Shown: positions 26,814 to 59,785 of the stretch, one piece after another
How the letters are laid out: each line of letters begins with the position of its first letter
Numbering within the stretch: position 1 is the first letter of the stretch
Origin: Euzebyales bacterium
GTDB lineage: Bacteria > Actinomycetota > Nitriliruptoria > Euzebyales > JAHELV01
Length of the DNA: 64,000 nt
Assembly: GCA_035461305.1 (NCBI GenBank)
Contig: DATHVN010000076.1
Coordinates: 667-64,666 of the forward strand
Direction of reading: 5' to 3'
The notes under the pieces: generated by a model
What the model saw: the letters and a program-made list of their open reading frames with translations, nothing else
Databases searched by the model: none
Told to the model about the DNA's origin: nothing
Translations under genes and position numbers: made by a program

Positions 26814-26922
26814 CCCACGTCCCGTGCACCGCGATGAGTTCCTGGCCGCAGCGTCGTCTGTCAGGGGTGAGGGCGTCGACGCCGCCGCGTCGCGCCGCCC
26901 ATCGACCCCAGTGGAGCAGGTC

Positions 26923-41876: not shown

Positions 41877-42872
41877 CTAGCGTTGCGGCCGGCCTCGCTC
41901 GATGCTGTCGGCGCCGGCGAGCCCGGTCCCGTGCGCACTGACGTCGTCGAGCAGCGTCGCCCGCGCACCGTCCAGACGAACCACGAGCGCACCTGTGTCG
42001 TCGATCAGCCCGATCCGCGCACATGCCAGGTCGCGCGCTGCGAACGCGGCGATGATCTCGTCGACCCGATCGGCGGAGGCACACAGCAGGAACCCGTACG
42101 ACGGGAACACGTCGAGCCATGTCGGGAGGGGCACGTCCTGTGGCCGCGGTATAGCGGCGAGGTCTACCAGGGCGCCGCAACCCGTTGGTTGCAGCAGCAT
42201 CGCCAACGTGCCGAGCGTGCCCGCCATGCTGATGTCCTTCGCAGCGACGGCGGCGCCTGTGTCGGCCACGTGCCGGAGCACTCCGAGGTCGCCTCGGACG
42301 CGGGTGCCGCGCTGATCGTAGGACGGGTAGAAACCGAAGTCCGAGCGCAATCGACCGTCGAGGCAGGCAGCCATCAGCAACACCTGCCCGGCGCGCGCGT
42401 TGCGGGCCAGCAACGGCGCGCCGACGTCACCCACGACGAACGCGGACAGCGAGGGCGCGTCGGACGTGATGGTCAGATGCCCACCGACGATTGGCAGTCC
42501 ATACAGATCGGCGGCGTGACGCAGACCGGCGAGGACCGCTCGCGCCACGTCGGCCGACGCGACGACGGTGTCGACGATCGCCAGCGGGCGACCACCCATG
42601 GCCGCGACATCGTTGACGTTCGCGACCACCGCACCGACACCGGCACCGAACGGATCCCTCGCGACGAACGGGGGGAAGATCGCCTCGCCTGCAGCCAGCA
42701 CGTCACCGGCGCCGCTGTGGATCAGCGCGGTGTCGTCACCCGGGCCGGTAACCCAGTCGGTCGGGCCGAGCGCGTCGGCGACGTGGTGCAGAGCCTGCTT
42801 GGCGATCCGCCCTCGGTTGGCCATGAACCGCCCGGCGATGACGGCGATCGGAGCATCGGGACGCTGGTTCAC
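41877..42872 (-). CDS. AIR-synthase-related (PurM/ThiL/HypE fold) protein, sll0787-family type
   Basis: ..GPGDDTALI..GAGVGAVVANVNDVAAMGGRPLAIVDTVV.., ..GGHLTI.., ..AAKDISMAGTLGTLAML... Divergent from the ComA-like operon across a 49-nt spacer. Confidence 0.7.
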   Translation of the reverse strand: MNQRPDAPIAVIAGRFMANRGRIAKQALHHVADALGPTDWVTGPGDDTALIHSGAGDVLAAGEAIFPPFVARDPFGAGVGAVVANVNDVAAMGGRPLAIVDTVVASADVARAVLAGLRHAADLYGLPIVGGHLTITSDAPSLSAFVVGDVGAPLLARNARAGQVLLMAACLDGRLRSDFGFYPSYDQRGTRVRGDLGVLRHVADTGAAVAAKDISMAGTLGTLAMLLQPTGCGALVDLAAIPRPQDVPLPTWLDVFPSYGFLLCASADRVDEIIAAFAARDLACARIGLIDDTGALVVRLDGARATLLDDVSAHGTGLAGADSIERGRPQR

Positions 42873-42921
42873 GGGGCTTCCTCGTCGGGAGGGCTGCGAT
42901 TATAGTGGAGAGCCATCCATC

Positions 42922-43740
42922 ATGAGAGAGAACCGCAGGTTCGAGTCACGCCCCGGGAGTGCTCCATCAGCGTTCCTGGACCTGCCGCGGCGCTCGACGA
43001 AGCCACGCAGGACCGGGCGCACCCACGTGCTGGATGTGGGGCATCCGCTCTCGACCGTCGAGGCTGTCCTCGGGTCACGCGCCGACCTGATCGACCTGTG
43101 GAAGTTCGGATACGGTACCGCCTACATCGACGCCGAGGTCGCGGCGAAGGTGGCGCTGCTGCACAGACACGACGTCGCGCCATGCGTCGGCGGTACGTTC
43201 CTGGAGATCTCGTGGCTGCAGAACCGGACCCACGAGTGCCTCGCATGGGCCGCCGACGTCGGCTTCAGATGCGTCGAGGTCTCCAACGGAACGGTGCCGA
43301 TGTCCAAGGACGACAAGCGCGGCCTCATCAAGCGCGCCGCCGAGGAGTTCGCCGTCGTATCCGAGGTGGGATCGAAGAACCCCGCCGACCCGGTCGAGCC
43401 GGCCACCTGGCGCGATGACATGCTCGGAGACCTTGAAGCCGGGGCGGTCCTGATGCTCGCGGAGGGACGTGCGAGCGGCACCGTCGGGCTGTACCGGAGC
43501 GATGGATCGGTACGGGAGGAGCTCGTCGAGGTCCTCCTCGCCGACGTCGGGGACCAGGTCGTGTTCGAGGCGCCCAGAACGGCGCAGCAGGCGTGGTTCG
43601 TGCGCCGGCTCGGTGCCGAGGTGAACCTCGCGAACATCGACGTCACGGCGGCATTGTCCGTCGAGGCGCTGCGTCTGGGACTCCGCGCGGACACGATGCG
43701 GATGGACGGCGGTGGCGGACGGGTCGAACCGTGGTCGTGA
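42922..43740 (+). CDS. (2R)-phospho-3-sulfolactate synthase (ComA) family protein
   Basis: FLDLPRRSTKPRRTGRTHVLD.., ..DLWKFGYGT.., ..VEVSNGT.., ..EGRASG.., ..VFEAPRTAQQAWFVRRLGAEVNLANIDVTAALSVEALRLGLRADT tracks my recollection of archaeal ComA end to end. Confidence 0.8.
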   Translation: MRENRRFESRPGSAPSAFLDLPRRSTKPRRTGRTHVLDVGHPLSTVEAVLGSRADLIDLWKFGYGTAYIDAEVAAKVALLHRHDVAPCVGGTFLEISWLQNRTHECLAWAADVGFRCVEVSNGTVPMSKDDKRGLIKRAAEEFAVVSEVGSKNPADPVEPATWRDDMLGDLEAGAVLMLAEGRASGTVGLYRSDGSVREELVEVLLADVGDQVVFEAPRTAQQAWFVRRLGAEVNLANIDVTAALSVEALRLGLRADTMRMDGGGGRVEPWS

Positions 43741-44591
43741 ACCTGTCGCCCGATCGTGAGCGGGAGGTCTCGGTCCTCGATGTCGACGTGCCGCTGGAGC
43801 TCGAGGCGCTGCGCGACGTGCTGCATGGGCGCCAGGCGTACCGCCGCACGCGGTACATCGTCGCGCGCCGGGATGATGACGTCGCAGTGCTCGAGATTGA
43901 GAAGCGCCGCGAGGAGCCGCTGTTCTCCGAGATCACCGCGGTGCGGATGCTGGCGGGCCCTGACGACAGCGTGCTGGTGACCGATCCCACCGTCGACATC
44001 GCGGTGCCGTCGCAGCTCGCCGCACTCGCCGAGGCGTCGACGGCGCGGTGCGTAGTCGTCGAGGGCCGGTACTCCTACATTGGGTTCGTCATCGACGCGG
44101 CGCCGACCCGGATCCGGATCGTCGATGCCGTGCCGCCGGACCCGCCGAAGCTGGTCGATCAGGCGCGCAGGGTGCTGGCCACCGCCGATGACCTGCCGTC
44201 GATCGCTCTCGACGTCGAGCTGCTCGATCTACGGACCCTGGCCTCCGACGTGACCGCCTCGACCGTGCTCTTCCCGTGCCGCGCGTCGGGGCTCGTCGCA
44301 AGCAGGGACAGCGCCTACCTCGACCAGCGGCCGCAGCGCACCGACTGGGTGCTGGTCGGCTGTGCGAGGTCCCGTGAGATCCACCGTTGGTTCTACGGCG
44401 ACGAGCCGCCGGTGATCGACAGTTGTCCACGCCACGTCGTCGACGGCGGCGTGCCCACGGTCGTCCGCTGCTGCCTGCTCGAGACCGGGATCGAACACGA
44501 CGGACGGGTCGTGGTCGTGCCCTGGGGCGCGAGCCTGGCCGAGGTCCGCGCCGGACTGGCGGCCGCGGCAGGGCTGGCGGCGTCACCGTGA
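43731..44591 (+). CDS. Hypothetical protein with no recognisable domain (286 aa)
   Basis: GTG 43731/43737 overlaps the ComA-like stop, and its own stop overlaps the next start (GTGA). Non-repetitive composition with a Cys-containing C-terminus (..LVGCARSREIHRWFYGDEPPVIDSCPRHVV..VVRCCLLETG..). Confidence 0.6.
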   Translation: MVVNLSPDREREVSVLDVDVPLELEALRDVLHGRQAYRRTRYIVARRDDDVAVLEIEKRREEPLFSEITAVRMLAGPDDSVLVTDPTVDIAVPSQLAALAEASTARCVVVEGRYSYIGFVIDAAPTRIRIVDAVPPDPPKLVDQARRVLATADDLPSIALDVELLDLRTLASDVTASTVLFPCRASGLVASRDSAYLDQRPQRTDWVLVGCARSREIHRWFYGDEPPVIDSCPRHVVDGGVPTVVRCCLLETGIEHDGRVVVVPWGASLAEVRAGLAAAAGLAASP

Positions 44592-45967
44592 CCGCACGGC
44601 TGACCGATTCGCGGCTCTACGGACACCTGTGGGCCACGTCGGAGGTGCGCGCGATCTTCGCCGAGGACGCGCGGCTGCAGTCCTGGCTCGACATCCTCGC
44701 CGCACTCGCTCAGGCACAGGCCGACCTGGGACTCGTCCCGCCCGAGGCCGCCGGCGCGATCGTTGCACACGCCGACGTCACCCTGCTCGACCTCGACCTG
44801 GTGGCACAGGAGACGCGACGGACGGGCCATTCGACGCTCGGACTCATCCGCGGGCTGCAGGCGGTGCTGCCGTCGGTCGCCCGCGAGCACGTCTACGTCG
44901 GTGCCACGGTCCAGGACATCACCGACACGTGGACGGCCCTCGTGATGCGCAGTGTCGGCGGCATCGTGTGGCGGGACCTGCGGTCGCTGGAGGACGAGCT
45001 GATCGCGCTGGCCGAGCGTCACCGCGACACCGCCATGGCGGGACGTACCCACGGACAGGCCGGCGCGGTGATCACGTTCGGATGGAAGGTGGCGACCTGG
45101 GCCGACGAGATCCGTCGCCATCTGGAGCGGCTGCGTTGTGGGGCGGACCGGTGGCTGGCCGGTCAGCTGGGTGGCGCCGTCGGCACCGCGGCGTTCTTCG
45201 GTCCGGACGCCGTCGAGCTCCGGGCGCGGTTCTGCGCACTGCTGGATCTGCCGGCACCACGCGTCTCGTGGCTGACGACACGCGACCGCGTCGCAGACTT
45301 CGGGCTGGCGCTCGCGCTGGTCACGCAGACGCTGGGTCGCATCGGCAACGAGATCTACGCACTGGCCCGCAGTGATGTCGGAGAGCTGCGCGAGCAGGTC
45401 ACTGTCGGCAGCGTCAGCAGCATCACGATGCCCCACAAGCGCAACCCGGAGCGCAGCGAGCACCTGGTGACGCTCGCGCGTCTGGTGCTGCCGCAGGCGC
45501 ACGTGCTGGTCGAGGGCATGATCGGCGAGCACGAGCGGGACGGCCGCTCCTGGAAGGCCGAGTGGGTGGCACTGCCCGAGATCTGTCTACTCACAGCCAC
45601 CGCGCTTGCGATCGCCGGCGAGGTTCTGCGCGGCCTCGAGGTCGACGCCGACCGCATGGCCGCAACCGTCGAGGCGCACCGCGGCGATCTGGCCTCCGAG
45701 CGGCTGCTCGCGGCCCTGACGCCGAGCGTGGGCAAGCACGAGGCACAGGCATTGCTGCAGGACGTGCTCGCCGAGAGCCGCGACCACCGCGTACCGGTCG
45801 AGCGGGCGTTGGCGGCCGCGGTCGACGCGCGGTCCCACCTCGACGACACGGCATTGCGCGCCGCTCTCGACGCCGCGCCGGACACCGGCGCGGCGGGAGC
45901 GATGGTCGACGCCGTGGTGGCCCACGCCCGCGCTGCGCGCGCGAGGGAGTCCGAGCGATGGCCATGA
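44588..45967 (+). CDS. Fumarate-lyase superfamily enzyme, adenylosuccinate lyase / 3-carboxymuconate cycloisomerase-like
   Basis: GTG 44588. ..LQSWLDILAALAQAQADLGLVP.., ..GATVQDITDT.., ..GRTHGQAG.., signature SSITMPHKRNP. Confidence 0.75.
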   Translation: MTARLTDSRLYGHLWATSEVRAIFAEDARLQSWLDILAALAQAQADLGLVPPEAAGAIVAHADVTLLDLDLVAQETRRTGHSTLGLIRGLQAVLPSVAREHVYVGATVQDITDTWTALVMRSVGGIVWRDLRSLEDELIALAERHRDTAMAGRTHGQAGAVITFGWKVATWADEIRRHLERLRCGADRWLAGQLGGAVGTAAFFGPDAVELRARFCALLDLPAPRVSWLTTRDRVADFGLALALVTQTLGRIGNEIYALARSDVGELREQVTVGSVSSITMPHKRNPERSEHLVTLARLVLPQAHVLVEGMIGEHERDGRSWKAEWVALPEICLLTATALAIAGEVLRGLEVDADRMAATVEAHRGDLASERLLAALTPSVGKHEAQALLQDVLAESRDHRVPVERALAAAVDARSHLDDTALRAALDAAPDTGAAGAMVDAVVAHARAARARESERWP

Positions 45968-46971
45968 TCGGGCGCGAGCGCACCGCCGCCGTCGACGTCC
46001 TGACCACATCACCGCGTGTCAGCCTGGCGCATCTGCCGACGCCGCTGCACCGCGCGGCGGCGCTGGAGCGGGCGCTGGGCTGTCCGCCGCTGTACGTGAA
46101 GCGCGACGATCTCACTGGCTTTGCGTTCGGTGGCAACAAGGCGCGGACACTCGAGTACCTGATCGGCGCCGCGCGCGCCGAGGGGTGTGACGTGCTGATC
46201 ACCGGCGGAGGACCGTCCTCGGCACACTGCATGACCGCCGCCATGGCAGCACGCGTCGTGGGCATGGCGTGCGTGCTCGTGTGCTTCGGCGAACCTCCGG
46301 CAAGCCGGCCTGCGGCGCTCGCGCTGGCGCTCGCCGCTGGCGCGCGGGTGCGGTTCACCGGCGACGACGATCGCGCGTCGATTGACCACCAGCTCGACGT
46401 GGTGGCGGCCGAGGAGCGCGCATCCGGTCGCCATCCCGCGGTCGTCCCACGTGGCGGCGCGACGGTTTCCGGCAGCCTGGCGTACGCAGCAGCGGTCCCC
46501 GAGGTCTCGACGCAGCTGTCCCGGCTCGGTGTGGAGCCGGATCTGCACCTGCTCGCCACCGGCTCGTGTGGGACGCAGGCGGGCCTCGTGGCCGGCACCA
46601 TCGCCATGGGTGCGGGCTGGCGCGTGATCGGCGCGTCGGTCAGCCGTCCGGTCGACGAATGTGTCGAGCGCGTCACGGCGCTCGCCACCGCATGCACGCA
46701 GCGCCTGGGTGTGCGCCCGCCGATGGTGCACGAGGTGATCGTGGTCGATGCCCGCGGCCCCGGCTTTGGTCGGACCTCTGCGGCCGGTCGGCGGTGCGCG
46801 CGGCTTGCCGCAGCGACCGAGGGACTGGTGCTCGACGACGTCTACACCGCCAAGGCGCTCGCTCAGCTGCCGACCGTCGCGCGGTCGGACGCGGCCGTGT
46901 TCTGGCACACCGGTGGCACCGTGGCGGCCGTGGCCAACGCGCTCAGTGCCGGAGAGGAGCAGGAACCGTGA
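45958..46971 (+). CDS. PLP-dependent ACC deaminase / D-cysteine desulfhydrase family protein
   Basis: ATG 45958 overlaps the upstream stop by 10 nt. ..PTPLHRA..LYVKRDDLTGFAFGGNKARTLEYLIG..VLITGGGPSS.., ..FWHTGG... Confidence 0.7.
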   Translation: MAMIGRERTAAVDVLTTSPRVSLAHLPTPLHRAAALERALGCPPLYVKRDDLTGFAFGGNKARTLEYLIGAARAEGCDVLITGGGPSSAHCMTAAMAARVVGMACVLVCFGEPPASRPAALALALAAGARVRFTGDDDRASIDHQLDVVAAEERASGRHPAVVPRGGATVSGSLAYAAAVPEVSTQLSRLGVEPDLHLLATGSCGTQAGLVAGTIAMGAGWRVIGASVSRPVDECVERVTALATACTQRLGVRPPMVHEVIVVDARGPGFGRTSAAGRRCARLAAATEGLVLDDVYTAKALAQLPTVARSDAAVFWHTGGTVAAVANALSAGEEQEP

Positions 46972-48446
46972 CCACGCCCACCACGGGACCGGCCGAGGAG
47001 CTGGTCGCGGCCGGGTTCGCCTATGAGGTCGGCGATGCGCCGGAGCTGCACCACGGCCTGAACCTGGCCGACATCGCACACGTGCTCGTGCTACGGGAAC
47101 GGGGACTGCTGCCCGACGCCACGATGGTGCCGCTGCTGCGGCTGCTGCTCGAGACGCATCGACGCCCCGTCGACGACTTCCCGTACGACCCGGCGTACGG
47201 CGAGGTCTACAACTGTCGGGAACGCCACTTCGTGGCGCGGCTCGGCGACGACGCCGGTTGGCTGCACGCCGGACGTCCACGGCGCGAGGCCGTGCGTGTA
47301 GCACTGCGACTGCGGCTACGCGAGATCACGGCCGACCTGGTGTGCGCCACGGCCGGCCTTGTGATCGCACTCGCCGATCGGGCCGCCGAGCATGCCGAGA
47401 CCTGCATGGCTGACCAGACCTATCTCCAACAGGCCCAGCCCTCGACGTTGGGTCACTACCTGCTCTCGTTCGCGTACCCGACGCTGCGCGACGGGCGGCG
47501 TGCGCTGGCGGCACTCGACGACATCAACCGCAGTCCCGGTGGGGCCGGGTGCGCGAACGGCAGCGGACTGCAGCTCGACCGCGGCCGCGTGGCGGACCTG
47601 CTCGGCTTCGACGGCATCATCGAGCACACGCGCGACGCCATGTGGCAGACCGACGGCCTGATCGATGTCACGGCGACCGCAGCAAGCCTGGTCGCCGGCG
47701 CCGACAAGTTGGCGGAGGATCTGGAGATCTGGTCGAGCCAGGAGTTCGACTACGTGTCCCTGGCGGCGCCCTACACGCGGGCCAGCGTGCTGATGCCCCA
47801 GAAGCGCAACCCGTACGCGCTGAGCGTGGTGCGTGGCAGCACGGGCCTCCTCATCGGCCGGCTCACGGGCCTGCTCGCGGTGACCAAGAGCCCGTCGGCG
47901 CGCAGCGACAACCTCATCTTCTCGTACGGCGACATCCCCCGGGCACTGACACAGGCGCGGCGGGTGGTCGAGCTGATGCGCGGGGTCGTGGCGACCCTGG
48001 AGGTGCACGCTGACCGTATGTGGTCGGCGCTGATCTCCGGGTTCACCCAGGCCACCGACCTCGCGGAGTTCGTCATGCAGCGCTGCGAGGTGGACTACCG
48101 CACGGCCTACCTCATCGTCGGACGCGCCGTCCAGACCGCGGCGGTCACAGGTCTGCGTGGCGTCGATCTCACGGGTGAGATGCTCGATGCCGCCTCCGTC
48201 GAACACCATGGCGACGCGCTTGGGCTGGCCGGCAGCGACCTGAGTGCCGTCCTGGACCCGCGTCGACTCGTGGCTGACCGCCTGGTCCCGGGCGGCGCCG
48301 CCCCTCGGCTGGTGCGCCAGATGGCCGACACGGTCCGCTCGCAGGCCAAGCAACTGGATCGGGGGGTGTCGGAGCGCCGTGCACGTATGCAGGCCGCCGA
48401 GCAGGCGCTTCTGCGCCGTGCCGAGCTGGTGATCGCCGATGGGTAG
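46968..48446 (+). CDS. Fumarate-lyase superfamily enzyme, argininosuccinate-lyase-like
   Basis: GTG 46968 overlaps the upstream stop (GTGA). ..TYLQQAQPSTLGHYLL.., signature ASVLMPQKRNPYAL, ..GFTQATDLAEFV... Confidence 0.75.
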   Translation: MTTPTTGPAEELVAAGFAYEVGDAPELHHGLNLADIAHVLVLRERGLLPDATMVPLLRLLLETHRRPVDDFPYDPAYGEVYNCRERHFVARLGDDAGWLHAGRPRREAVRVALRLRLREITADLVCATAGLVIALADRAAEHAETCMADQTYLQQAQPSTLGHYLLSFAYPTLRDGRRALAALDDINRSPGGAGCANGSGLQLDRGRVADLLGFDGIIEHTRDAMWQTDGLIDVTATAASLVAGADKLAEDLEIWSSQEFDYVSLAAPYTRASVLMPQKRNPYALSVVRGSTGLLIGRLTGLLAVTKSPSARSDNLIFSYGDIPRALTQARRVVELMRGVVATLEVHADRMWSALISGFTQATDLAEFVMQRCEVDYRTAYLIVGRAVQTAAVTGLRGVDLTGEMLDAASVEHHGDALGLAGSDLSAVLDPRRLVADRLVPGGAAPRLVRQMADTVRSQAKQLDRGVSERRARMQAAEQALLRRAELVIADG

Positions 48447-48459
48447 ATCGCGCCGCGGC

Positions 48460-48855
48460 TCACGCGCCGCCTACGGCGTACTCGATCCGGGGGGGTTCGA
48501 TCAGCGTGTTCGAGACGAAGCAGTAGGCCTTCGCGCGCTCGATCAACTGCTCGGCGTCCGCGTCGGCGAGATCGGTCGTGACCTGCACGCGGATCCATGC
48601 GAAGCGGTTGCCCTCGTAGTCGGCCTCGACGCGGACCGCCAGCTGCTCGAGCGTGATGTCGCACTTGCGCGACGCGTGCGCCACCGCCATGGTGAAGCAC
48701 GTGGCCAGCGAGGCGAGGAACAGCTCGGTCGGAGTGGGACCATCATCCGTGCCACCGACCGACTCGGGCTCATCGGCCAGGATATCGAAGTCACGCACCG
48801 TGACCTGCGACCGGTACCCGCCCGACCACACGGCCAGGAGCGTCTTGTCAGCCAT
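48460..48855 (-). CDS. osmC: OsmC family protein (thiol peroxidase fold)
   Basis: Last 131 codons of ORF 48460..50175, from ATG 48855. ..GGTDDGPTPTELFLASLATCFT.., ..AKAYCFVSNTL.. carry the two conserved Cys. Confidence 0.75.
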   Translation of the reverse strand: MADKTLLAVWSGGYRSQVTVRDFDILADEPESVGGTDDGPTPTELFLASLATCFTMAVAHASRKCDITLEQLAVRVEADYEGNRFAWIRVQVTTDLADADAEQLIERAKAYCFVSNTLIEPPRIEYAVGGA

Positions 48856-48880
48856 GAGCAGCGATCGTAACAGTGGGGCC

Positions 48881-51453: not shown

Positions 51454-51545
51454 GTGGTGTGTGATCTCCAGGCCAACGGACGGGCCCGAGTGGTGCGGCG
51501 TCCGAGCGGCGCGCAGGCGGCCGTGCGACAAGGGCGCCGGGCGGT

Positions 51546-53111: not shown

Positions 53112-53644
53112 GCGGCGATCTCGTCCTGGCCACGCTCGACGTCGTCGACGACTCGCGTGCCATGGCGTCCGTCGAGCGCGTCGCCGACGTGGGGGTCCGA
53201 CGTGATCAGGGCGAGGCGCGCTCCGCGGCCGACGAACTCGGTCGTCGACTCGACCTTCGGCCCCATCGAGCCCACGGGGAACTGGCCGTCAGCGAGGTGC
53301 GCCCGTGCCTGCGCGACGGTCATCTCGTCGATGGAACGCTGCGCGGGTGTGTCGTAGTCGATCGCGACGGCCGGCACACCGGTCACCAGCACCAGCAGCT
53401 CGGCGCCGAGACCGGTCGCCAGGTGCGCGGCCACGCGGTCCTTGTCGATGACGGCGTCGACGCCGTGCAGACCGTCGTCGCTGCGCAGCAGGGTGACGCC
53501 GCCGCCGCCGGCGATCACGACCACCGCGTCGACCAGTGCGCGCACGCTGTCCATCTCGAGCACCTCGACCGGCACGTCGTAGGCGCCCGAGGCACCCTCC
53601 GGGACGAACGCGTTGCCGCCGAACGCGATCACCGCCGTCGGCAT
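53108..53644 (-). CDS. Carbamate-kinase-like protein, abnormally short (178 aa) with the central region missing in frame
   Basis: N-terminus AVIAFGGNAF joins almost directly to the C-terminal lobe (..VVVIAGGGGV..GVDAVIDKDRVAAHLA..LLVLVTGVPAV..FPVGSMGPKVEST..). My recollection of carbamate kinases is ~310 aa. Confidence 0.55.
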   Translation of the reverse strand: MPTAVIAFGGNAFVPEGASGAYDVPVEVLEMDSVRALVDAVVVIAGGGGVTLLRSDDGLHGVDAVIDKDRVAAHLATGLGAELLVLVTGVPAVAIDYDTPAQRSIDEMTVAQARAHLADGQFPVGSMGPKVESTTEFVGRGARLALITSDPHVGDALDGRHGTRVVDDVERGQDEIAA

Positions 53645-53647
53645 CGA

Positions 53648-54223
53648 TCACCTCGTCCTGAAGGCCATCCACATCGCCCTGGTCACGCCGGAGGAGATGT
53701 TCCGCCATTGGTGCGGCCGGTCGGTCCGGAAGTGCAGGGAGTCGCCGGCCGTCAGCGTGTAGCACTCCTCGTCGACCCGGATCTCCATGCCGCCGTCGAG
53801 GACGTGGACCAGTTCCTCGCCGGGGTGCTCCATCGGCTGCGCCCCGCTGTCGGCTCCGGCATCGAGCACCGCGACCGCGCCGGCCAGCAGGAACTGACCG
53901 TAGGGTCCGCTGATCCCTTGCAGCTCGAGTCCCTGTTTGGAGGTGAGCACCGGACGGCGGTCCGCGGCGGGCGTGAACACGGCGGGACGGCCCAGGTCCT
54001 CCTCGTCGACGAAGAAGGCGACCGACCGGTTGAGCGCGGCCGCCAGCTTCATCAACGTCGTGATCGTCGGGGTCATGTGCGAGTGCTCGATCTTGTGGAT
54101 CGCGGCTGTCGACACCCCGGAGCGGTCGGCGAGCTGCTGCATCGACAGCCCCTTCTGCTGGCGGACCTGGCGGAGCTTGCCGCCGATCGCTCCGACGACA
54201 GCATCAAGGGCAGCTTGCGGCAC
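53648..54223 (-). CDS. XRE-family HTH regulator with a C-terminal cupin domain
   Basis: ..IGGKLRQVRQQKGLSMQQLADRSGVSTAAIHKIE.. HTH and a cupin (..HPGEELVHVLDGGMEIRVDEECYTLTAGDSLHF..). Start at GTG 54223 or TTG 54241. The stop lies 3 nt before the CK-like start. Confidence 0.75.
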   Translation of the reverse strand: MPQAALDAVVGAIGGKLRQVRQQKGLSMQQLADRSGVSTAAIHKIEHSHMTPTITTLMKLAAALNRSVAFFVDEEDLGRPAVFTPAADRRPVLTSKQGLELQGISGPYGQFLLAGAVAVLDAGADSGAQPMEHPGEELVHVLDGGMEIRVDEECYTLTAGDSLHFRTDRPHQWRNISSGVTRAMWMAFRTR

Positions 54224-54265
54224 GTGGCACCCACTTGGCAACGTACGGTTCGTTCCGTAGGATCA

Positions 54266-54301
54266 TATCCGATAGGAAAGAAGTTCTGCCACTATCCGAT
54301 A
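54266..54301. promoter_or_regulatory. Two copies of the palindromic 9-mer TATCCGATA in a divergent intergenic region (candidate operator pair)
   Basis: TATCCGATA occurs at 54266-54274 and 54293-54301 (27 nt centre to centre). Both sit in the AT-richer 95-nt spacer between the XRE-cupin gene and the flavoprotein gene. Confidence 0.55.
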
Positions 54302-54336
54302 TGGTCGCGCGTGCTGGCACGGCGTGACAGGAGGCA

Positions 54337-55683
54337 ATGGTGCGGATCCTCGTGGTCGGCGGGGGCGCCTCGGGTATGGGCGCGGTCGGTGCAGCGGAGA
54401 CCGTGAACTCCGACGCGGACGTCGGGATGTTCACGGCATACGAGGACATCGCCTACAGCCCGTGCGGGATCCCCTACGTGCACGGCGGCGAGATCGACGA
54501 CTTCGACGCGTTGTTCCTGCAGGGCAAGGAGTTCTACGCCGATCGCGGCATCGACGTGCACTACGAGACGGTCGTCACCGACATCGACCTGGACCGCCAG
54601 CAGTTGACCGTGCACGACGGATCCACCCACGGATTCGACCGCCTGGTCCTGTGCACAGGCTTCGAGTGGGTGCGGCCGGACCAGCCGGGCAACCAGCTGT
54701 CCGGTCTGCACTCGCCCAAGAACATCCGTGAGTCGATGGCGTTCGACAAGGTCCTCGACGACGCCCGGCGCGCGGTCGTCATCGGTGGCACGCCGCTGGG
54801 TGTCGAGATGGCAGGCGGCCTGGCCAAGCGTGGTCTGGACACCCACCTCGTCGACACCCATTCCTGGGTGCTGTCGGGCATCGCCGACCCCGACATGGTC
54901 GAGCCCGTCGAGGAGTCCCTCGTCGAGCTCGGCGTCACCCTTCACCCGACCACCGAGGTCTCGGCGTTCGTCGGCGTCAACAAGGTCAAGGCGGTCGCCA
55001 CATCCGCGGGCGACCTCGAGGCAGACGTCGTGGTCATCTGCGACAAGCGCCGGCCCAAGACGGAGCTGGCCGAGGCAGCAGGGCTCGACATCGGCTCGAC
55101 CGGCGGGTTGATCGTCGATGACCACCTGCGCACGTCGTCCCCGATCGTCTACGCCGCCGGCGACATCATCGAGATCCCCCATGAGCTGCACGGCATCCCG
55201 ACGCGTGGGTTGACCGGCAGCCACTCGTACGCTGAGGGCAAGGTCGCCGGCACCAACGCCGCGGGCGGAGACCGCAGATACCGACCGGTCGCCGTCCCCT
55301 GGGGACTGGTCGCGGGTAAGTGGGCGATCGGCGGCGCGGGCTTCGGCGAGAACCTTGCGGACGCCCTGGGCATGCCGTACGTGGTGGGCAAGGGCCAGGG
55401 CATCTCGCGCGCTCGGTACTACCCAGGGTTCAAGCCCGTCTGGGTCAAGCTGCTCGCCGATCCCGAGACGCACGCGCTGGTCGGCGCCCAGATGACCGGC
55501 GGCGAGGGCATCAAGGAGCGAGCCGACTTCCTGGCGATGGCCATCCGCAAGCGGATCACGATCGAGGACCTCGCCTCGATGGAGAACGTCTACGCACCTC
55601 CGATCGGCGCGGTCATGGAGCCGATCGCGATCTGCGCGCAGGGCCTGCAGGCCGACCTCGAGTCGGGTGCCCGCGACCGATGA
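54337..55683 (+). CDS. FAD/NAD(P)-dependent pyridine-nucleotide-disulfide oxidoreductase, Nox/CoA-disulfide-reductase-like
   Basis: ATG follows AGGAGG. ILVVGGGASG; single redox Cys context YSPCGIPYVHGG; second Rossmann VVIGGTPLGVEMAG; ..YAAGD..; C-terminal dimerisation domain. Confidence 0.75.
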   Translation: MVRILVVGGGASGMGAVGAAETVNSDADVGMFTAYEDIAYSPCGIPYVHGGEIDDFDALFLQGKEFYADRGIDVHYETVVTDIDLDRQQLTVHDGSTHGFDRLVLCTGFEWVRPDQPGNQLSGLHSPKNIRESMAFDKVLDDARRAVVIGGTPLGVEMAGGLAKRGLDTHLVDTHSWVLSGIADPDMVEPVEESLVELGVTLHPTTEVSAFVGVNKVKAVATSAGDLEADVVVICDKRRPKTELAEAAGLDIGSTGGLIVDDHLRTSSPIVYAAGDIIEIPHELHGIPTRGLTGSHSYAEGKVAGTNAAGGDRRYRPVAVPWGLVAGKWAIGGAGFGENLADALGMPYVVGKGQGISRARYYPGFKPVWVKLLADPETHALVGAQMTGGEGIKERADFLAMAIRKRITIEDLASMENVYAPPIGAVMEPIAICAQGLQADLESGARDR

Positions 55684-55925
55684 GTTGGATCCGACGGCTG
55701 TCGCAGTGGCTGCGCTCGAACTCCGAGCGCTACCTGCAGGAGGCCGCCGAACGCGACACGGCGGCACGCTACGGGCGTCCGCCGCCCCTCGTCGGCAGCG
55801 GACCTGTCGACCTGTTCTGGCGCTACGTGTTCGTCCCGATCTACCGGGCCCTGCCCTGGCGGATGCGGCTGACCGTGATGCGCGCGATGCCAGGCAGCCA
55901 CCGCAAGCAGTGGAGAGGAGGCTGA
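55680..55925 (+). CDS. Small hypothetical protein (81 aa), translationally coupled to the flavoprotein gene
   Basis: ATG 55680 overlaps the upstream TGA (ATGA). MSWIRRLSQWLRSNSERYLQEAAERD..VDLFWRYVFVPIYRALPW.. has one amphipathic/hydrophobic stretch. Coding status is uncertain. Confidence 0.4.
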   Translation: MSWIRRLSQWLRSNSERYLQEAAERDTAARYGRPPPLVGSGPVDLFWRYVFVPIYRALPWRMRLTVMRAMPGSHRKQWRGG

Positions 55926-56039
55926 CACCCCTGGGTTCGACGTGGGTGGCCACACCACCGGTGCGGTGGCCGCCGACGCCATCGCGGCGACACCGACCGC
56001 GAGCACCGGCACACGCAGCAACACGTCAAGGAGGCAGTG

Positions 56040-56525
56040 ATGGCGGACATCGTTGGCGAGCGAGTACAGCAAGGCGACGCGATCGTCGACTACGACCACA
56101 AGTACTTCGAGGACATCCAGGCGGAAGAGGGTGAATCGGCGTACGTCTTCATGCACACGGTGCCGTTCGAGGGGTCAGTCGGACTCGTCAACATGCTCAC
56201 GACGACGCGGATCAACCGGAAGGGGTTCGACACGCACCTGATCCTCTACGGCCCCGGCTCGCTGATGGCGGCCGCTAGTCGCGGCTACCCCAAGGTCGGC
56301 GACGAGGCCTTCCCCGGTGCACTGGCCTACAACAAGCAGCTGCAGACGTTCATGGACGAGGGCGGCCATGTGTACGCCTGCCGCTTCTCGGCCGCGGCGC
56401 TCTACGGCATGCGGGAGATCGACATGATGGAAGGCGTGCAGCCGCTGAACCCCCTCGACATCCTCGACGCGGTCCTCACGGCGCGCCGGCAGGGGGCATT
56501 GGTGCTGCAGACCTGGACGCTGTAG
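56040..56525 (+). CDS. MSMEG_0572/Sll0783-family type nitrogen-starvation-response protein (DsrE-like pattern)
   Basis: ATG 56040 lies 5 nt after AAGGAGG. ..VDYDHKYFEDIQAEEGE..FMHTVPFEGSVGLVNMLTTTR..LILYGPGSLMAA..FPGALAYNKQLQTFMDEGGHVYACRFSAAALYGMRE..LVLQTWTL matches my memory of this family. Confidence 0.6.
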   Translation: MADIVGERVQQGDAIVDYDHKYFEDIQAEEGESAYVFMHTVPFEGSVGLVNMLTTTRINRKGFDTHLILYGPGSLMAAASRGYPKVGDEAFPGALAYNKQLQTFMDEGGHVYACRFSAAALYGMREIDMMEGVQPLNPLDILDAVLTARRQGALVLQTWTL

Positions 56526-56545
56526 CGGCGCGACGCCCCGAGGTG

Positions 56546-57193
56546 ATGCGGGTGGATCTGCAGGTCGCCGAGGTCGTCGCATGTTGGCGCCGGGCCGAGG
56601 AGCGCCTGTACCCGGTCGTGATGGTCGACCCGGAGCGCTACACCCGCATCGTGTCCGTGATCCGGGCGACCGCCGACCGGCTCAGCGCGCACGACACGCC
56701 CGACGAGCTGGTCCGAGCCCGTGCGCGCGGCAGCGAGCTGGTCGCTGCATCGTGTGCGGCCGTCGGCGTGCCCGTCGCGCACCTTCCAGACCTCGAGGTG
56801 GTCGCGGACGCGGCGTTCGGACTGCGCCATCGTGAGGTCGAAGCCGAGCAGCGCCGCCAGCGGATGGCGGCCGGGATCGTCGCGGCGCGTGCGCGGGGGG
56901 ACACCTGGGTCACGCTCGACGAGTCCGGACAGCCCGACCCCCTTGGCGCGGCGCCGTACCAGCGCATCGACATGCGGCTCGACGACGGCAGTGGGATCCG
57001 GATGTCGATCGACGTCGATCCCGACTCCTATCGGCCGGTCTACACCCTCGAGCGCCTCCGTCTCGACCCAGTCAGCGGGGCCGTGACCGGATCGGCGGAC
57101 GCCGACCGTGCGACGTTCGCCGATCCCGCAGCGTGGCGGGCGGCCTTCGTGCGCTGGCGGGACGCCGACGCCGAGCGGCCCAGGTGCCCTTGA
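56546..57193 (+). CDS. Hypothetical protein with no recognisable domain (215 aa)
   Basis: GTG 56543 / ATG 56546 lie 18 nt after the upstream stop. Non-repetitive sequence (..AEVVACWRRAEERLYPVVMVDPERYTRIV..RMSIDVDPDSYRPVYTLERLRLDP..). Confidence 0.5.
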   Translation: MRVDLQVAEVVACWRRAEERLYPVVMVDPERYTRIVSVIRATADRLSAHDTPDELVRARARGSELVAASCAAVGVPVAHLPDLEVVADAAFGLRHREVEAEQRRQRMAAGIVAARARGDTWVTLDESGQPDPLGAAPYQRIDMRLDDGSGIRMSIDVDPDSYRPVYTLERLRLDPVSGAVTGSADADRATFADPAAWRAAFVRWRDADAERPRCP

Positions 57194-57208
57194 CATCCCG
57201 CCCACGCA

Positions 57209-57230
57209 GTCGTTTCTTATAGGAAACGAC
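57209..57230. promoter_or_regulatory. AT-rich perfect inverted repeat GTCGTTTC-ttatag-GAAACGAC (hairpin or operator)
   Basis: 8-bp arms and a 6-nt loop in the 96-nt gap between the 215-aa ORF and the amidohydrolase gene. TTGACA (57190-57195) lies 13 nt upstream. Confidence 0.5.
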
Positions 57231-57289
57231 GACTTGCCCATATGAAGCGCGGCACTCAGCGCACTGCGAACGCACAAAGGAACGTGAAC

Positions 57290-58147
57290 ATGGCGTCACA
57301 GGACCGTGTCGAACGGGACGTCTTCGACGGTCACAGCCACATCGGTGAGCTACCGCCGTACGCCTTCTACGACCTAACCGAGCCCGTCAAGCCGACGGTC
57401 TACGACTTCCCCGACACCAAGTCCTACCTCGATCACCTCGACACCCTCGGGGTCGAACGTGCGCTGGTGCTCCCCAACTACGGCGTTCCCGACCAGCAGG
57501 CCGCGTTCTCGCTGAACCCGGTCATGCTGGACGCGGTCACGTCGACGGACCGGCTGATCGGCGGCCTGTGGGTGTCGTTCCTGCCGCAGAACCGCGAGTC
57601 GACGAAGGAGGCCCTGCGCCACGCAGGCGAGGACGGGATCGTGGCGCTCAAGACCACGTTCCTGCTGGGCGGCACACCGAACCCCGACGATTGGGACGAG
57701 GAGACCGAGGAGATCGCCAACGCGTGTTTCGACGCCGCCGAGGAGCACGACCTGGTCTTCCACTTCCACACCAGCCCCGGCGGAGCGTCCGACATCAACA
57801 ACTACATCCCCCTGGTCCAGCGTTACGCCATGCGCGTCAAGACCCACCTCGTGCACTTCGGCGGCGGCGTCAGCGGTCACATCCGCCTCGTTCCCAGGTT
57901 CCTCGACTGGGTTGAGGAGGGTTACCGGGTCTACACGGACACGACCTGGTCGATCGGTTTCGGAGCGCGCTGGTTGATGACCGAGATCGAGAAGCGCGGC
58001 GTGGGTCACGATCGCGTGCTGTTCGCCTCGGACGAGCCGTGGAGCGACTTCTGGAGCGAGTACTACAAGATCAGGAACGCACCGGTCGGCGACGAGTTGA
58101 AGGACCGTGTCCTGCATCGCAACGCCGTGGAGCTCTACGAGAGGTGA
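57290..58147 (+). CDS. Amidohydrolase_2-type metal-dependent TIM-barrel hydrolase
   Basis: ATG 57290. N-terminal FDGHSHIG (HxH), ..LVFHFHT.., ..LVHFGGG.., ..LFASDEPW.. (Asp) fit the amidohydrolase pattern. Confidence 0.7.
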   Translation: MASQDRVERDVFDGHSHIGELPPYAFYDLTEPVKPTVYDFPDTKSYLDHLDTLGVERALVLPNYGVPDQQAAFSLNPVMLDAVTSTDRLIGGLWVSFLPQNRESTKEALRHAGEDGIVALKTTFLLGGTPNPDDWDEETEEIANACFDAAEEHDLVFHFHTSPGGASDINNYIPLVQRYAMRVKTHLVHFGGGVSGHIRLVPRFLDWVEEGYRVYTDTTWSIGFGARWLMTEIEKRGVGHDRVLFASDEPWSDFWSEYYKIRNAPVGDELKDRVLHRNAVELYER

Positions 58148-58152
58148 CGGCC

Positions 58153-59286
58153 ATGCCCAACGCCGACGACCGTGGGTTCGGCACCATGCTCGCCGACCTG
58201 CAGAGCTACGGCGCGCGCATCGAGCGTGAGATCGAAGGTCGTCGCGGCGGCGCCGGCCCCTCGGACGCCGGCATGATCTGGGTCGAGGGCGTGCGCGTGA
58301 CGTTCCCCTTCACCTCCGAGTACGTCGGGAACTCACCCTTCGTGCTGCGCGAGGACGTCGACGGCTGGCACCTGTGGCGCGACGGTGAACCGGTCGCGCG
58401 CGCCGAGGTGCCCGACCGCCCCCGCTTCTACGATCTGGAGACCGACGACGGCGTCCCGTACTGGAAGATCGCGCTGCTGCACATCGACTCGCTGGCCAGC
58501 ACGGTCATCCAGACCTGCAAGCACTGGGGCACCGACGACCAGTGCCACTTCTGCGGGATCGAGCTGTCTCTCGAGGCGGGTGCGACCATCCCGGTCAAGC
58601 GGCCGCACCAGCTCGCCGAGGTGGCGGCCGCCGCAAAGGAGCTCGACGGCGCGGTCGACGTGACCCTGACGACAGGGACCACCCATGGCCCTGACCGCGG
58701 TGCGCTCTACCTCGGGCGATGTGCGGCGGCGATCAAGGCCGCGACCGACCTGCCGATTCAGGTGCAGTTCGAGCCGCCGGAGGACCTGTCAGTGCTCGAC
58801 CGGATCAAGGCGCAGGGCGTTGATTCGGTGGGCATCCACGTCGAGTCGTTCGACCCCGACGTGCTGGCACGCATTGCGCCGCCGAAGGCACGCACAGGCA
58901 TCGACGGCTACTTCCACGCCTGGGAGCGCGCCGTCGCGGTCTTCGGTCGAGGCCAGGTGTCGACCTATGTGATCCTCGGGATGGGCGAGGACCTCGAGCT
59001 CACCGTCGACGGCTGTCGCCGCGCGGTCGACGCGGGGGTGTATCCGTTCGTGGTGCCGCTGCGGCCGGTCCCCGGGAGCATCCTCGAGGACCGGCTACCG
59101 CCATCACCCGACTACGTCGAGGCGATCTACCGGCGCGTCGGGCCCTACGTCACCAGCCGCGGCCTGGGATCCTGGAACGTCACCGCAGGGTGTGCACGGT
59201 GCCAGGCGTGTTCGGCCATCGCCGCCTTCGAGGAAACCGACGATGCTTCGACCCGCACTCGTCTCCCCGTTCTCGGCGTCAGCTGA
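58153..59286 (+). CDS. Radical SAM protein, MSMEG_0568-family type
   Basis: ATG 58153 lies 5 nt after the upstream stop. ..GGAGPSD.., ..PRFYDLETDDGVPYWKIALLH.., Cys cluster CKHWGTDDQCHFC, ..LTTGTT..DRGA.., ..GQVSTYVILGMGE.., ..GVYPFVVPLRPVPGS.., C-terminal ..AGCARCQACS. Confidence 0.75.
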   Translation: MPNADDRGFGTMLADLQSYGARIEREIEGRRGGAGPSDAGMIWVEGVRVTFPFTSEYVGNSPFVLREDVDGWHLWRDGEPVARAEVPDRPRFYDLETDDGVPYWKIALLHIDSLASTVIQTCKHWGTDDQCHFCGIELSLEAGATIPVKRPHQLAEVAAAAKELDGAVDVTLTTGTTHGPDRGALYLGRCAAAIKAATDLPIQVQFEPPEDLSVLDRIKAQGVDSVGIHVESFDPDVLARIAPPKARTGIDGYFHAWERAVAVFGRGQVSTYVILGMGEDLELTVDGCRRAVDAGVYPFVVPLRPVPGSILEDRLPPSPDYVEAIYRRVGPYVTSRGLGSWNVTAGCARCQACSAIAAFEETDDASTRTRLPVLGVS

Positions 59287-59785
59287 CGAGATCCGCCGGG
59301 CCCGCAAGGGCCCGACCCTGTCGTGCCGTGCCGCGGCGGACGATGAGCTGGCGCTGCACTGGCGTATCCGTCACGAGGTGTTCGTCGACGAGCAGGGCGT
59401 CTTCGACGTCGACGACCGCGACGAGTTCGACGACCGCGCCGGCACGGTGCATGCGCTCGGCTTGTGCGGCCCAGTCGCTGCGGGCACGGTGCGGTTCTAC
59501 CCCCTCAGCGACCCCCGGCTGTGGAAGGGTGACCGCCTCGCAGTGCTCCCGCCCTTCCGCAGCCTCGGACTCGGTGGGCCACTCGTGCGCTTCGCCGTGC
59601 ACACGGCAGGCACGCTGGGAGGCGAGCAGATGATCGCCTACATCCAGCCGCAGAACGTCGCGGTGTTCGAGCACCTCGGCTGGCGGACCGTCGGCCCGCT
59701 GATCGACTACGTCGGCCAGCCGCATCAGAAGATGCTGATTGACCTGTTGCGGTCCGACCCTCCCCACGTGACGCTCGTCCCGTAA
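59243..59785 (+). CDS. GNAT N-acetyltransferase, MSMEG_0567/Sll0786-family type
   Basis: ATG 59243 overlaps the rSAM 3' end by 44 nt. ..HWRIRHEVFVDEQGVFDVDDRDEFD..GTVRFYPL..WKGDRLAVLPPFR..IQPQNVAVFEHLGW..GQPHQKM... Confidence 0.7.
   Translation: MLRPALVSPFSASADEIRRARKGPTLSCRAAADDELALHWRIRHEVFVDEQGVFDVDDRDEFDDRAGTVHALGLCGPVAAGTVRFYPLSDPRLWKGDRLAVLPPFRSLGLGGPLVRFAVHTAGTLGGEQMIAYIQPQNVAVFEHLGWRTVGPLIDYVGQPHQKMLIDLLRSDPPHVTLVP

Follow-up and report, generated by a model that had tools for sequence, protein, structure and literature searches.

The Nit1C/gpr/sll0783 gene cluster has been known since 2005 and, to our knowledge, none of its core enzymes has an assigned reaction. The cluster affects NADPH balance, polyhydroxybutyrate accumulation, peroxide resistance and cyanide assimilation. 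In nitrogen-starved Mycobacterium smegmatis, the gpr cluster confers peroxide resistance and a higher NADPH/NADP ratio (PMC6039565). Nitrogen starvation induces both gpr (in a GlnR-dependent manner) and sll0783, and Pseudomonas requires Nit1C to assimilate cyanide. As described by Podar et al. 2005, Nit1C is built around a subfamily-1 (Nit6803/sll0784-type) nitrilase as its second gene. Here we analysed a related locus from a Euzebyales genome, found within 64,000 nucleotides of contig DATHVN010000076.1 (assembly GCA_035461305.1, positions 667 to 64,666), a stretch that we call the window. The 19 genes of this locus, at positions 41877-59785, set a Nit1C-type core without a nitrilase beside homologues of genes of known chemistry, namely coenzyme M (CoM) synthesis, a disulfide reductase, an OsmC protein and a predicted DsrE-like carrier.

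The G+C content of the window is about 71%, which made raw lists of open reading frames (ORFs) useless, and genes were therefore called by the phase of third-position GC (GC3). These calls match the gene calls of the source contig and upheld the 19 genes proposed earlier from the sequence alone (the sequence-only reading), including all of the 10-, 4- and 44-nt start/stop overlaps listed there. From left to right, an AIR-synthase-like gene (minus strand) is followed by comA, xcbA, xcbD, xcbE and xcbC (plus), osmC (minus), allG (plus), then glycosyltransferase, fdrA, carbamate kinase and XRE-cupin genes (all minus), and finally genes for a CoADR-like flavoprotein, an 81-aa protein, an MSMEG_0572-family protein (0572), a 213-aa protein, an Amidohydro_2 protein, a radical SAM (rSAM) protein and a GNAT (all plus). 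Overlaps of 10 nt join comA to xcbA and xcbD to xcbE, those of 4 nt link xcbA/xcbD, xcbE/xcbC, fdrA/glycosyltransferase, carbamate kinase/fdrA and CoADR/81-aa genes, and the rSAM and GNAT genes overlap by 44 nt.

We compared the locus with two sets of relatives. A scan of 185,579 species-representative genomes anchored on the glycosyltransferase (GT) gave 370 relatives, and the best 80 of these 370 loci were analysed by tblastn with all window proteins. Since their GTs share at most 64% identity with that of the window, none is from the window's own species. Counts out of 37 refer to the full-flank loci, those GT-anchored loci with complete 10-kb flanks. An independent scan anchored on XcbA gave 80 loci from Joint Genome Institute (JGI) metagenomes, many of them on short contigs. 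Locus numbers (L) identify individual relatives.

Protein families were tested against the curated cutoffs of NCBIfam and against Pfam. Five signature families of the nitrogen-starvation cluster had been named from the sequence alone, and four of them score above their cutoffs: the MSMEG_0568-family rSAM protein (58153..59286, plus strand, 377 aa; TIGR04043, 408.2 versus 303.7), the MSMEG_0567/Sll0786-family GNAT (59243..59785, plus, 180 aa; TIGR04045, 102.5 versus 68.45), the MSMEG_0572/Sll0783-family protein (56040..56525, plus, 161 aa; TIGR04044, 218 versus 109.85) and the MSMEG_0565-family GT4 glycosyltransferase (50272..51549, minus, 425 aa as called, or 393 aa if started at 51453; TIGR04047, 371.8 versus 259.85). 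The fifth, a 331-aa AIR-synthase-like (AIRS-like) protein of the PurM superfamily (41877..42872, minus), did not pass. Its best match is TIGR04049, at 265.8 bits versus a cutoff of 321.3, followed by methanogenesis marker 2; it carries Pfam AIRS and AIRS_C domains, is 41% identical to a Methylocystis protein named sll0787 family by NCBI, and has SelD, PurL, ThiL and HypE as relatives in the PDB. Its gene diverges from comA across a 49-bp spacer, adjoins comA in most related loci and occurs in 33 of the 37 full-flank loci. The rSAM and GNAT genes are present in all 37. Instead of the canonical CX3CX2C, the cluster motif of the rSAM protein is CX8CX2C (Cys122/131/134), and a C-terminal CX2CX2C could be the site of a second cluster. 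This protein shares 59-77% identity with orthologues of the same cluster type, as against about 46% with canonical Nit1C/gpr rSAMs. Sequence searches found no solved structures for the rSAM, Amidohydro_2 and 0572 proteins.

These families make the locus a relative of Nit1C (Synechocystis sll0783-0787; Pseudomonas nitBCDEFGH). Both contain an Sll0783-family (YchN/DsrE-like) protein, an MSMEG_0568-family rSAM, a GNAT and an AIRS-like protein, both show tight operon packing and the theme of a flavoprotein with a small unknown protein, and in both the GNAT gene follows that of the rSAM, in the window with the 44-nt overlap. However, the Nit1C flavoprotein is of the COG2072/MSMEG_0569 type, whereas that of the window is CoADR-class; Nit1C ORF6 (about 100 aa, MSMEG_0570/Pnap_2097 type) is unrelated to the small protein of the window; and the place of the subfamily-1 nitrilase is taken by Amidohydro_2. 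The window also has 11 or 12 extra genes (five Xcb genes, OsmC, AllF/G/K, XRE-cupin and the 213-aa protein). The gpr cluster (M. smegmatis MSMEG_0565-0572, with a copy on Rhodococcus pLP1, L081) is likewise actinobacterial, has the 0565-family GT and the 0572, 0568 and 0567 (GNAT/AIRS) families in common with the window, and plausibly shares a link to redox stress. It differs in that GNAT and AIRS form a single fusion there but two separate genes in the window, in that its two carbon-nitrogen (CN) hydrolases, MSMEG_0570 and MSMEG_0569 have no homologue in the window, and in that it has no Xcb, AllF/G, CoADR or OsmC genes. Rhodococcus 0570 and 0569 and Methylocystis Pnap_2097, used as tblastn queries, found no match in the window. 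Since the definition of Podar et al. requires a nitrilase, the locus is a relative of Nit1C, and equally of gpr, but not a member. Thus, the proposed kinship with an MSMEG_0565-0572 type cluster that lacks a nitrilase and has gained modules stands, while the label of a Nit1C variant in the strict sense does not.

One of the added modules was first described as a ComA-like operon. It is a full set of homologues for the characterised bacterial CoM pathway (XcbB/ComA, XcbA, XcbD, XcbE and XcbC). The chemistry of this pathway was established in vitro for Xanthobacter autotrophicus Py2 (PMC9457059): XcbB/ComA adds sulfite to phosphoenolpyruvate, XcbC eliminates phosphate from phosphosulfolactate to yield sulfoacrylate, XcbD adds cysteine to sulfoacrylate, XcbE, a pyridoxal phosphate (PLP) enzyme, releases sulfoethanethioaldehyde, and XcbA, a [2Fe-2S] reductase, converts the latter to CoM. 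All five families are encoded on the plus strand of the window in one overlapping operon of the order B-A-D-E-C. Phosphosulfolactate synthase ComA, that is XcbB (42922..43740, 272 aa; Pfam ComA; TIGR03849, 212.7 below 280), is 49% identical to its counterpart in M. chubuense NBB4 and 35% to that in Py2. The XcbA-family protein (43731..44591, 286 aa; NF052538, 311.4 above 150; Pfam DUF7714, 281.5 bits) shares 42-46% identity with XcbA of Py2, NBB4, Nocardioides JS614 and Methylocystis, and five cysteines are invariant across the clusters of alkene oxidisers and those of the window type. XcbD-like (44588..45967, 459 aa; NF052536, 583.3 bits versus a cutoff of 600) and XcbC-like (46968..48446, 492 aa; NF052535, 421.2 below 575) are both enzymes of the aspartase/fumarase superfamily; the former is about 48-63% identical to NBB4 and 38% to Py2, the latter 59% to Methylocystis, 52% to NBB4 and 36% to Py2. 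Between them lies the XcbE-like PLP enzyme of the D-cysteine desulfhydrase family (45958..46971, 337 aa; NF052537, 265.1 below 450), with 47% identity to NBB4. Taken as a set, the identities are 44-63% to NBB4, a CoM-dependent ethene oxidiser, and 35-42% to Py2. The NBB4 values fall within the range accepted for CoM genes in other bacteria (45-55% identity, PMC11507031), which supports the assignment to CoM.

The xcbABCDE operons of Py2, NBB4 and JS614 resemble that of the window in combining the five enzyme families, in the XcbA cysteines and in having a CoADR-class reductase nearby. In contrast to those operons, which go with alkene pathway genes, the Xcb genes of the window sit in a Nit1C-like cluster. 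This setting is not peculiar to the window. Clustered at 50% identity, XcbA is a small family of 457 representatives out of 1.84 billion proteins. Among the 80 XcbA-anchored loci, we found AIRS in 39, AllG in 33, OsmC in 31, GNAT in 29, rSAM in 26, FdrA in 24 and GT in 23, and every long contig carried core genes. Markers of the alkene pathway (monooxygenase, short-chain dehydrogenase/reductase (SDR) and CoA-transferase) were found in none of the 80 loci. In the JGI sample, then, XcbA homologues belong to clusters of the window type and not to those of the alkene type.

A second group of genes points to thiol redox chemistry. Its regulator gene (53648..54142, minus, 164 aa) encodes a PuuR-like XRE-HTH + cupin protein (Pfam HTH_3 and Cupin_2; NF007408, 82 below 211) and in most related loci diverges from the gene for a CoADR/Nox-class single-cysteine flavoprotein disulfide reductase (54340..55683, plus, 447 aa; Pyr_redox_2, Pyr_redox and Pyr_redox_dim). 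The active-site motif of the flavoprotein is YSPC42GIPY, and it scores below the equivalog cutoffs for coenzyme A disulfide reductase (CoADR; TIGR03385, 255.5 versus 578.8; NF007123, 227.7 versus 458). Reductases with the same cysteine motif and 29-31% identity lie beside the xcb genes of NBB4 (L089, 11516-12892, divergent from comA) and Py2 (Xaut_5065; L090, 15837-17222), and a Methylocystis homologue that has this motif and likewise adjoins xcb genes is 52% identical. In the literature searched we found no bacterial CoM-disulfide reductase described, the only activity cited being archaeal; the flavoproteins next to xcb in NBB4 and Py2 are, judging from motif and position, candidates for this function.

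The reductase gene is coupled through ATGA to that of a conserved 81-aa protein (55680..55925, plus) without a match in Pfam or NCBIfam. This gene follows the reductase gene in 33 related loci, and its product has conserved NSExYLLEA...MPGSHRR motifs. We considered it as the equivalent of MSMEG_0570/ORF6 and found no similarity. Next comes the 0572 protein, which models as a DsrE-like fold: the AlphaFold 2 (AF2) model (pLDDT 81.6) has DsrE/DsrF-like structures as its top Foldseek matches (3mc3 (E 1.9e-6), 3pnx, 2qs7, 1l1s and 2hy5, probability 1.00), in agreement with the YchN-like assignment of the Sll0783 family by Podar et al. With a Cys114 that is invariant in 24 sequences, it is a candidate sulfur carrier. 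It is also the most conserved protein of the cluster, far ahead of its neighbours, with a median identity of 71% in related loci and 78-91% across genera among the 120 best homologues listed. These homologues always measure 161-163 aa and include proteins of Pseudonocardia, Blastococcus, Actinomycetospora and Egibacteraceae; one is mis-named 'GTP cyclohydrolase II' in its source annotation. The trio of CoADR, 81-aa and 0572 genes occurs in 16 of the 37 full-flank loci, and in 15 of these 16 Xcb genes lie within 10 kb. An OsmC-family protein (thiol-dependent hydroperoxide reductase family; 48460..48855, minus, 131 aa; Pfam OsmC, 73.6 bits) adjoins the Xcb operon in the window, in Methylocystis and in 31 of the 80 XcbA-anchored loci. 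In a Microbacteriaceae metagenome-assembled genome (MAG), xcbA stands apart from the other Xcb genes (L073, 13706-14542), after the CoADR/81-aa pair and beside 0572, so that the CoM and redox modules are directly interleaved.

The arrangement as a whole recurs in other Actinomycetota MAGs. All 19 genes are present in L080 and 18 of 19 in both L016 and L031, in the same order as in the window except for the AIRS-like gene, which adjoins GNAT in L016, L019 and L031. Selection on the locus as a unit, which the sequence-only reading had argued for, is borne out by this recurrence. At least two Xcb genes are found in 27 of the 37 full-flank loci. The composite spans Actinomycetota, Dormibacterota, Alpha- and Gammaproteobacteria, and parts of it are found again in Acidimicrobiia, Pseudonocardia, Kribbella, Dormibacterota and Proteobacteria. 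Actinobacterial carriers include Jiangellaceae, Egibacteraceae, Acidimicrobiia, Pseudonocardia, Kribbella, Nocardioides, Nonomuraea, Planosporangium, Microbacteriaceae and a Mycolicibacterium MAG; others are Dormibacterota, Hoeflea, Denitrobaculum and a gammaproteobacterial MAG. Cultured strains with the cluster include Pseudonocardia hydrocarbonoxydans NBRC 14498, Methylocystis iwaonis SS37A-Re, Hoeflea sp. TYP-13 and Planosporangium flavigriseum TBRC 198. A minimal form of nine genes (AllH, AllG, AIRS, GNAT, rSAM, 213-aa, carbamate kinase, FdrA and GT) was observed in L047, L052, L054, L056, L066 and L070; this form, from Kribbella, Nocardioides and Ilumatobacter, has no Xcb, CoADR, 0572 or OsmC gene within 10 kb.

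One relative is encoded in a methanotroph, on the finished Methylocystis iwaonis plasmid pSS37A-Re-1 (NZ_AP027143.1, L088, 209118-229087), which has counterparts of 17 of the 19 genes with identities of 34-62% (the five Xcb genes, OsmC, AllG, GT, FdrA-like, CoADR-like, the small protein, 0572, 213-aa, XRE-cupin, rSAM, GNAT and AIRS). It adds a Nit6803-family nitrilase directly upstream of rSAM, a Pnap_2097-family protein and DUF983, and is without Amidohydro_2, carbamate kinase and AllH. Because this sibling contains a nitrilase, nitrilase loss is not a precondition for joining the Nit1C core to the Xcb and redox genes. The plasmid cluster is annotated gene by gene only, and we found no description of it in the literature searched. 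Likewise, no paper found there combines "Nit1C" with "coenzyme M" or brings at least three of the key gene names together. The cluster is widespread in environmental bacteria, many of them from soil, and new to that literature as a described unit.

These comparisons bear on two deflationary explanations. One is that the locus is a chance juxtaposition or an assembly artefact, given that its source is a metagenome-assembled contig. However, other assemblies made independently from the same population (L083-L085, L087) show this gene order, as do dozens of unrelated genomes, among them complete chromosomes and the finished plasmid. Synteny refutes this explanation, and we give it next to no weight. 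The other holds that functionally independent operons have come together only by co-regulation or co-transfer, as a stress island. Module order and orientation do differ between taxa, and each module is found alone elsewhere. Yet co-localisation recurs in several phyla, to the extent of Xcb genes in most full-flank loci; the long XcbA-anchored contigs all carry core genes and never alkene genes; and the core is not simply adjacent to the other modules but intermingled with them, AIRS lying next to ComA and GT sharing an operon with FdrA and carbamate kinase. We therefore regard a mere stress island as quite improbable.

The missing nitrilase was confirmed by two approaches covering all six frames of the 64 kb. 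Three nitrilase-family queries (the two CN-hydrolases of Rhodococcus qingshengii pLP1, L081, and the Nit6803-family nitrilase of the Methylocystis plasmid) gave no tblastn match in the window at E <= 1e-3, and with a custom CN-hydrolase hidden Markov model (HMM) built from six such proteins the best window ORF reached E = 1.4, versus 1e-114 to 1e-120 for positive controls. A nitrilase hidden in another frame, or a decayed one, is thereby ruled out, and the earlier claim that the window has no nitrilase ORF holds. Among the 80 GT-anchored loci, a strong CN-hydrolase match was found only in L068, a canonical Nit1C-type locus, with weaker nitrilase-like matches (32-35% identity) in L064 and L071; among the 80 XcbA-anchored loci there was none. 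The absence of a nitrilase is thus a stable trait of the whole widespread cluster family and not a loss in the Euzebyales genome. Its place, directly before rSAM, where the Methylocystis plasmid has the Nit6803-family nitrilase, is occupied by a 285-aa metal-dependent hydrolase/decarboxylase-family protein (57290..58147, plus; Amidohydro_2, PF04909, 71.1 bits) with an HxH motif. Amidohydro_2 is confined to loci with the CoADR/0572 module (10 of 10, versus 0 of 21 others).

A further set of genes, described earlier as DUF1116, FdrA and carbamate kinase, corresponds by sequence to the AllG/AllF/AllK oxamate transcarbamylase system of E. coli (PMC11326118, PMC9843812). The AllG (YlbE/DUF1116)-like protein (48881..50296, plus, 471 aa; Pfam AllG, 238 bits) is 40% identical to E. 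coli YlbE, and the FdrA/AllF-like (succinyl-CoA-synthetase-alpha-like) protein (51546..53111, minus, 521 aa; Pfam HMA_AllF_N and Ligase_CoA; NF004760, 418.8 versus a cutoff of 433) is 40% identical to E. coli FdrA. In most related loci carbamate kinase is encoded in the same operon; FdrA is present in 35 and carbamate kinase in 34 of the 37 full-flank loci. The E. coli genes go with allantoin genes, while those of the window share an operon with a glycosyltransferase, which is the last gene of a carbamate kinase-FdrA-GT operon in 61-73 of the 80 related loci. Two of the added modules are thus homologues of described pathways, XcbA-E and AllF/AllG/AllK, which the sequence-only reading had not recognised; their combination we did not find in the literature searched.

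In the window, this module is damaged. The carbamate kinase is a 178-aa remnant (53108..53644, minus) that covers only positions 165-308 of 309 of TIGR00746: an in-frame internal deletion has removed about 160 central residues including HGNGPQVG, leaving in place the GGNA motif near the N-terminus together with the C-terminal half. Orthologous frames in related clusters measure 330-354 aa from stop to stop. Since an independent assembly also has the short kinase (176 aa, L083), the deletion is not an assembly error. AllH (DUF2877), an indispensable subunit of the E. coli enzyme, was not detected in the window at E <= 1 with the E. coli protein and three cluster-type proteins as queries. The gene is present in 28 of the 80 related loci. 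In the relatives closest in synteny, L080 (11274-11570), L031 (11161-11520), L005 (6604-6900) and L019, it separates GT from AllG; in the window the 3' ends (stop codons) of GT and AllG overlap by 25 nt (50272-50296). Short kinase and absent AllH together indicate that the carbamoyl module is eroding in the Euzebyales genome with no stop codon or frameshift to be seen. The locus had been called intact, and this is correct as regards frameshifts and premature stops but not as regards the kinase and AllH.

Amidohydro_2 and the All genes also allow the core to be read as a nitrogen-scavenging catabolic route for a nitrile, ureido or amide compound, with the cofactor CoM carrying the substrate in the way known from epoxide metabolism. 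C-N cleavage would then fall to the nitrilase in Nit1C, to the two CN-hydrolases in gpr, and in the window to Amidohydro_2 and/or to AllF/G/H with carbamate kinase, a route giving carbamoyl phosphate and then ammonia. The hydrolase in the nitrilase position upstream of rSAM fits this scheme, as do the release of nitrogen from oxalurate by E. coli AllFGH/AllK (PMC11326118, PMC9843812), the requirement for Nit1C in cyanide assimilation by Pseudomonas, the induction of gpr and sll0783 by nitrogen starvation, and the usual clustering of CoM synthesis genes with a CoM-consuming pathway. However, the carbamoyl module, in contrast to the conserved remainder, is decaying in the window and incomplete in Methylocystis. 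Known CoM-dependent enzyme types (the epoxyalkane:CoM transferase EaCoMT and the SDRs) are not present, the XcbA-anchored loci are devoid of alkene-cluster markers, the cluster itself has no transporter gene for taking up an external substrate, and a glycosyltransferase and a GNAT would be unusual in a catabolic route. On balance we consider such a route rather doubtful.

A somewhat better, though still unlikely, explanation is that all genes of the locus together form a biosynthetic cluster, dedicated to a single specialised metabolite or cofactor that contains a sulfonate. A building block (CoM, sulfoethanethioaldehyde or 3-sulfopropionyl-cysteine) would come from the Xcb enzymes and be tailored by GT4 glycosylation, GNAT acetylation, AllF/G carbamoylation from carbamoyl phosphate, ATP-dependent activation by the PurM-like enzyme and rSAM modification, much as mycothiol and bacillithiol are assembled. 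The GT lends itself to this idea: it has weaker matches to MshA and BshA, and its nearest characterised families include the first enzymes of mycothiol and bacillithiol synthesis, and GNAT, hydrolase and ATP-dependent enzyme round out a similar enzyme set. NCBI/TIGRFAM labels the core families 'biosynthetic process', operon coupling is tight and the AIRS-like gene adjoins ComA. Against it, the modules shuffle and occur apart (the core without Xcb genes, and Xcb genes but no core in alkene clusters), and the window has an eroded carbamoyl module. Moreover, a complete Xcb set including the terminal reductase XcbA points to free CoM rather than a diverted intermediate, and a dedicated disulfide reductase with OsmC would be more at home with a redox thiol than with a natural product destined for secretion.

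The reading that we tentatively favour, and hold to be plausible rather than probable, is that of a stress-linked sulfur/thiol system, which makes CoM or a near analogue, keeps it reduced and is coupled to the Nit1C-type core. The locus would be one copy of a widespread, horizontally shuffled 'supercluster' of four modules. In the first, XcbB-A-D-E-C would turn phosphoenolpyruvate, sulfite and cysteine into CoM (2-mercaptoethanesulfonate) or a very close analogue; CoM is the expected product by analogy with the characterised enzymes. In the second, under control of the XRE-cupin regulator, the CoADR-class flavoprotein, its 81-aa partner, the DsrE-like 0572 protein and OsmC would draw on NAD(P)H to maintain the thiol, or its persulfide, in the reduced state and employ it in defence against peroxides; the genomic context suggests both the substrate of the reductase and the use of CoM by OsmC. 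The third module (rSAM, GNAT, PurM-like ATP enzyme, GT4 and 213-aa protein, with Amidohydro_2 in the nitrilase place) may make or process a small nitrogen- or sulfur-containing metabolite. The fourth, of AllF/AllG(/AllH/AllK) type, would perform carbamoyl transfer beside the core and is apparently decaying in the Euzebyales genome. A link to nitrogen or oxidative stress is suggested by this context; it is borrowed from the phenotypes of M. smegmatis gpr and Synechocystis sll0783 and from the antioxidant role of CoM in methanogens, which CoM overproduction protects from oxidative stress (PMC12713407).

Several observations weigh against this thiol system. In 8 of the 37 full-flank loci (Kribbella, Nocardioides and Ilumatobacter types) no Xcb gene lies within 10 kb, and canonical Nit1C/gpr clusters also occur without Xcb genes; hence the core does not strictly depend on CoM genes in cis. 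Four of the five Xcb homologues fall under the tight NCBIfam cutoffs, XcbA alone being above, so that a different sulfonate product is possible. The association of the reductase with Xcb genes is by itself not significant (Fisher p = 0.10). As for ties to nitrogen control, no Rfam element, riboswitches included, was found in the window at gathering thresholds, and a GlnR-box-like pattern was not enriched (29 found versus 36 expected).

The remaining features concern single genes and the borders of the locus. The conserved 213-aa protein (56552..57193, plus) is encoded in 31 of the 37 full-flank loci and has 33 homologues, all unnamed, and no Pfam domain. Its AF2 model (pLDDT 91.9) combines a helical bundle with a 5-stranded sheet and found no match in the PDB (best E 0.16). 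As candidates we tried a diverged nitrilase, AllH and Pnap_2097, and rejected them (no Pfam, NCBIfam or PDB match; hhalign probability below 1%). The 96-bp spacer between this gene and that of Amidohydro_2 contains a 22-bp near-perfect palindrome, GTCGTTTCTTA/TAGGAAACGAC (that is, GTCGTTTCTTATAGGAAACGAC; 57209..57230), a possible operator or element of an internal promoter. In the divergent promoter region of the XRE-cupin and CoADR genes (54143..54339), two exact copies of TATCCGATA lie 27 bp apart at 54261-54306, inside a 15-nt imperfect inverted repeat. An operator is our guess for this repeat; as a conserved operator we rejected it, its conservation being limited to contigs of the same species.

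The third codon positions of OsmC (minus) and AllG (plus) share one sequence phase across 48460-50296. Consequently, long spurious ORFs (571 aa and 547 aa) pass through both genes whichever strand is read, and can mislead annotation from ORFs in this high-GC sequence. Outside the cluster, the TetR, alpha/beta-hydrolase and RecQ-like genes on its flanks are matched in none of the 80 related loci; as flank genes are never conserved, the cluster borders are real. From the sequence alone, roughly a quarter of the flanking genes had been called degraded. In a rough survey, the coding phase of the flanks is fragmentary at about 8.9-10.0, 16.8-18.7 and 26.8-27.6 kb, and the 14 genes called at 27.9-41.7 kb look normal. 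In these fragmentary stretches (about 8900-10000, 16800-18700 and 26800-27600) the GC3 phase shifts every few hundred bases and no long ORF corresponds to it, which may reflect gene decay or errors of assembly.

If CoM is made, its known bacterial range and role would be much enlarged, and a candidate for a bacterial CoM-disulfide reductase is suggested as well; a reductase of the same class lies beside the xcb genes of alkene oxidisers. In its most far-reaching form, which we advance as speculation and think unlikely to hold in full, the thiol reading would extend CoM or a close sulfonate thiol beyond methanogens and a few alkene-oxidising bacteria. It would be a nitrogen-free low-molecular-weight thiol of many soil Actinomycetota, Dormibacterota and some Proteobacteria, kept reduced by a CoADR-class reductase with a DsrE-like carrier and functionally tied to the Nit1C/gpr/sll0783 core. 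This 20-year-old orphan cluster would thereby gain a first mechanistic handle, namely sulfur/thiol chemistry under nitrogen and oxidative stress.

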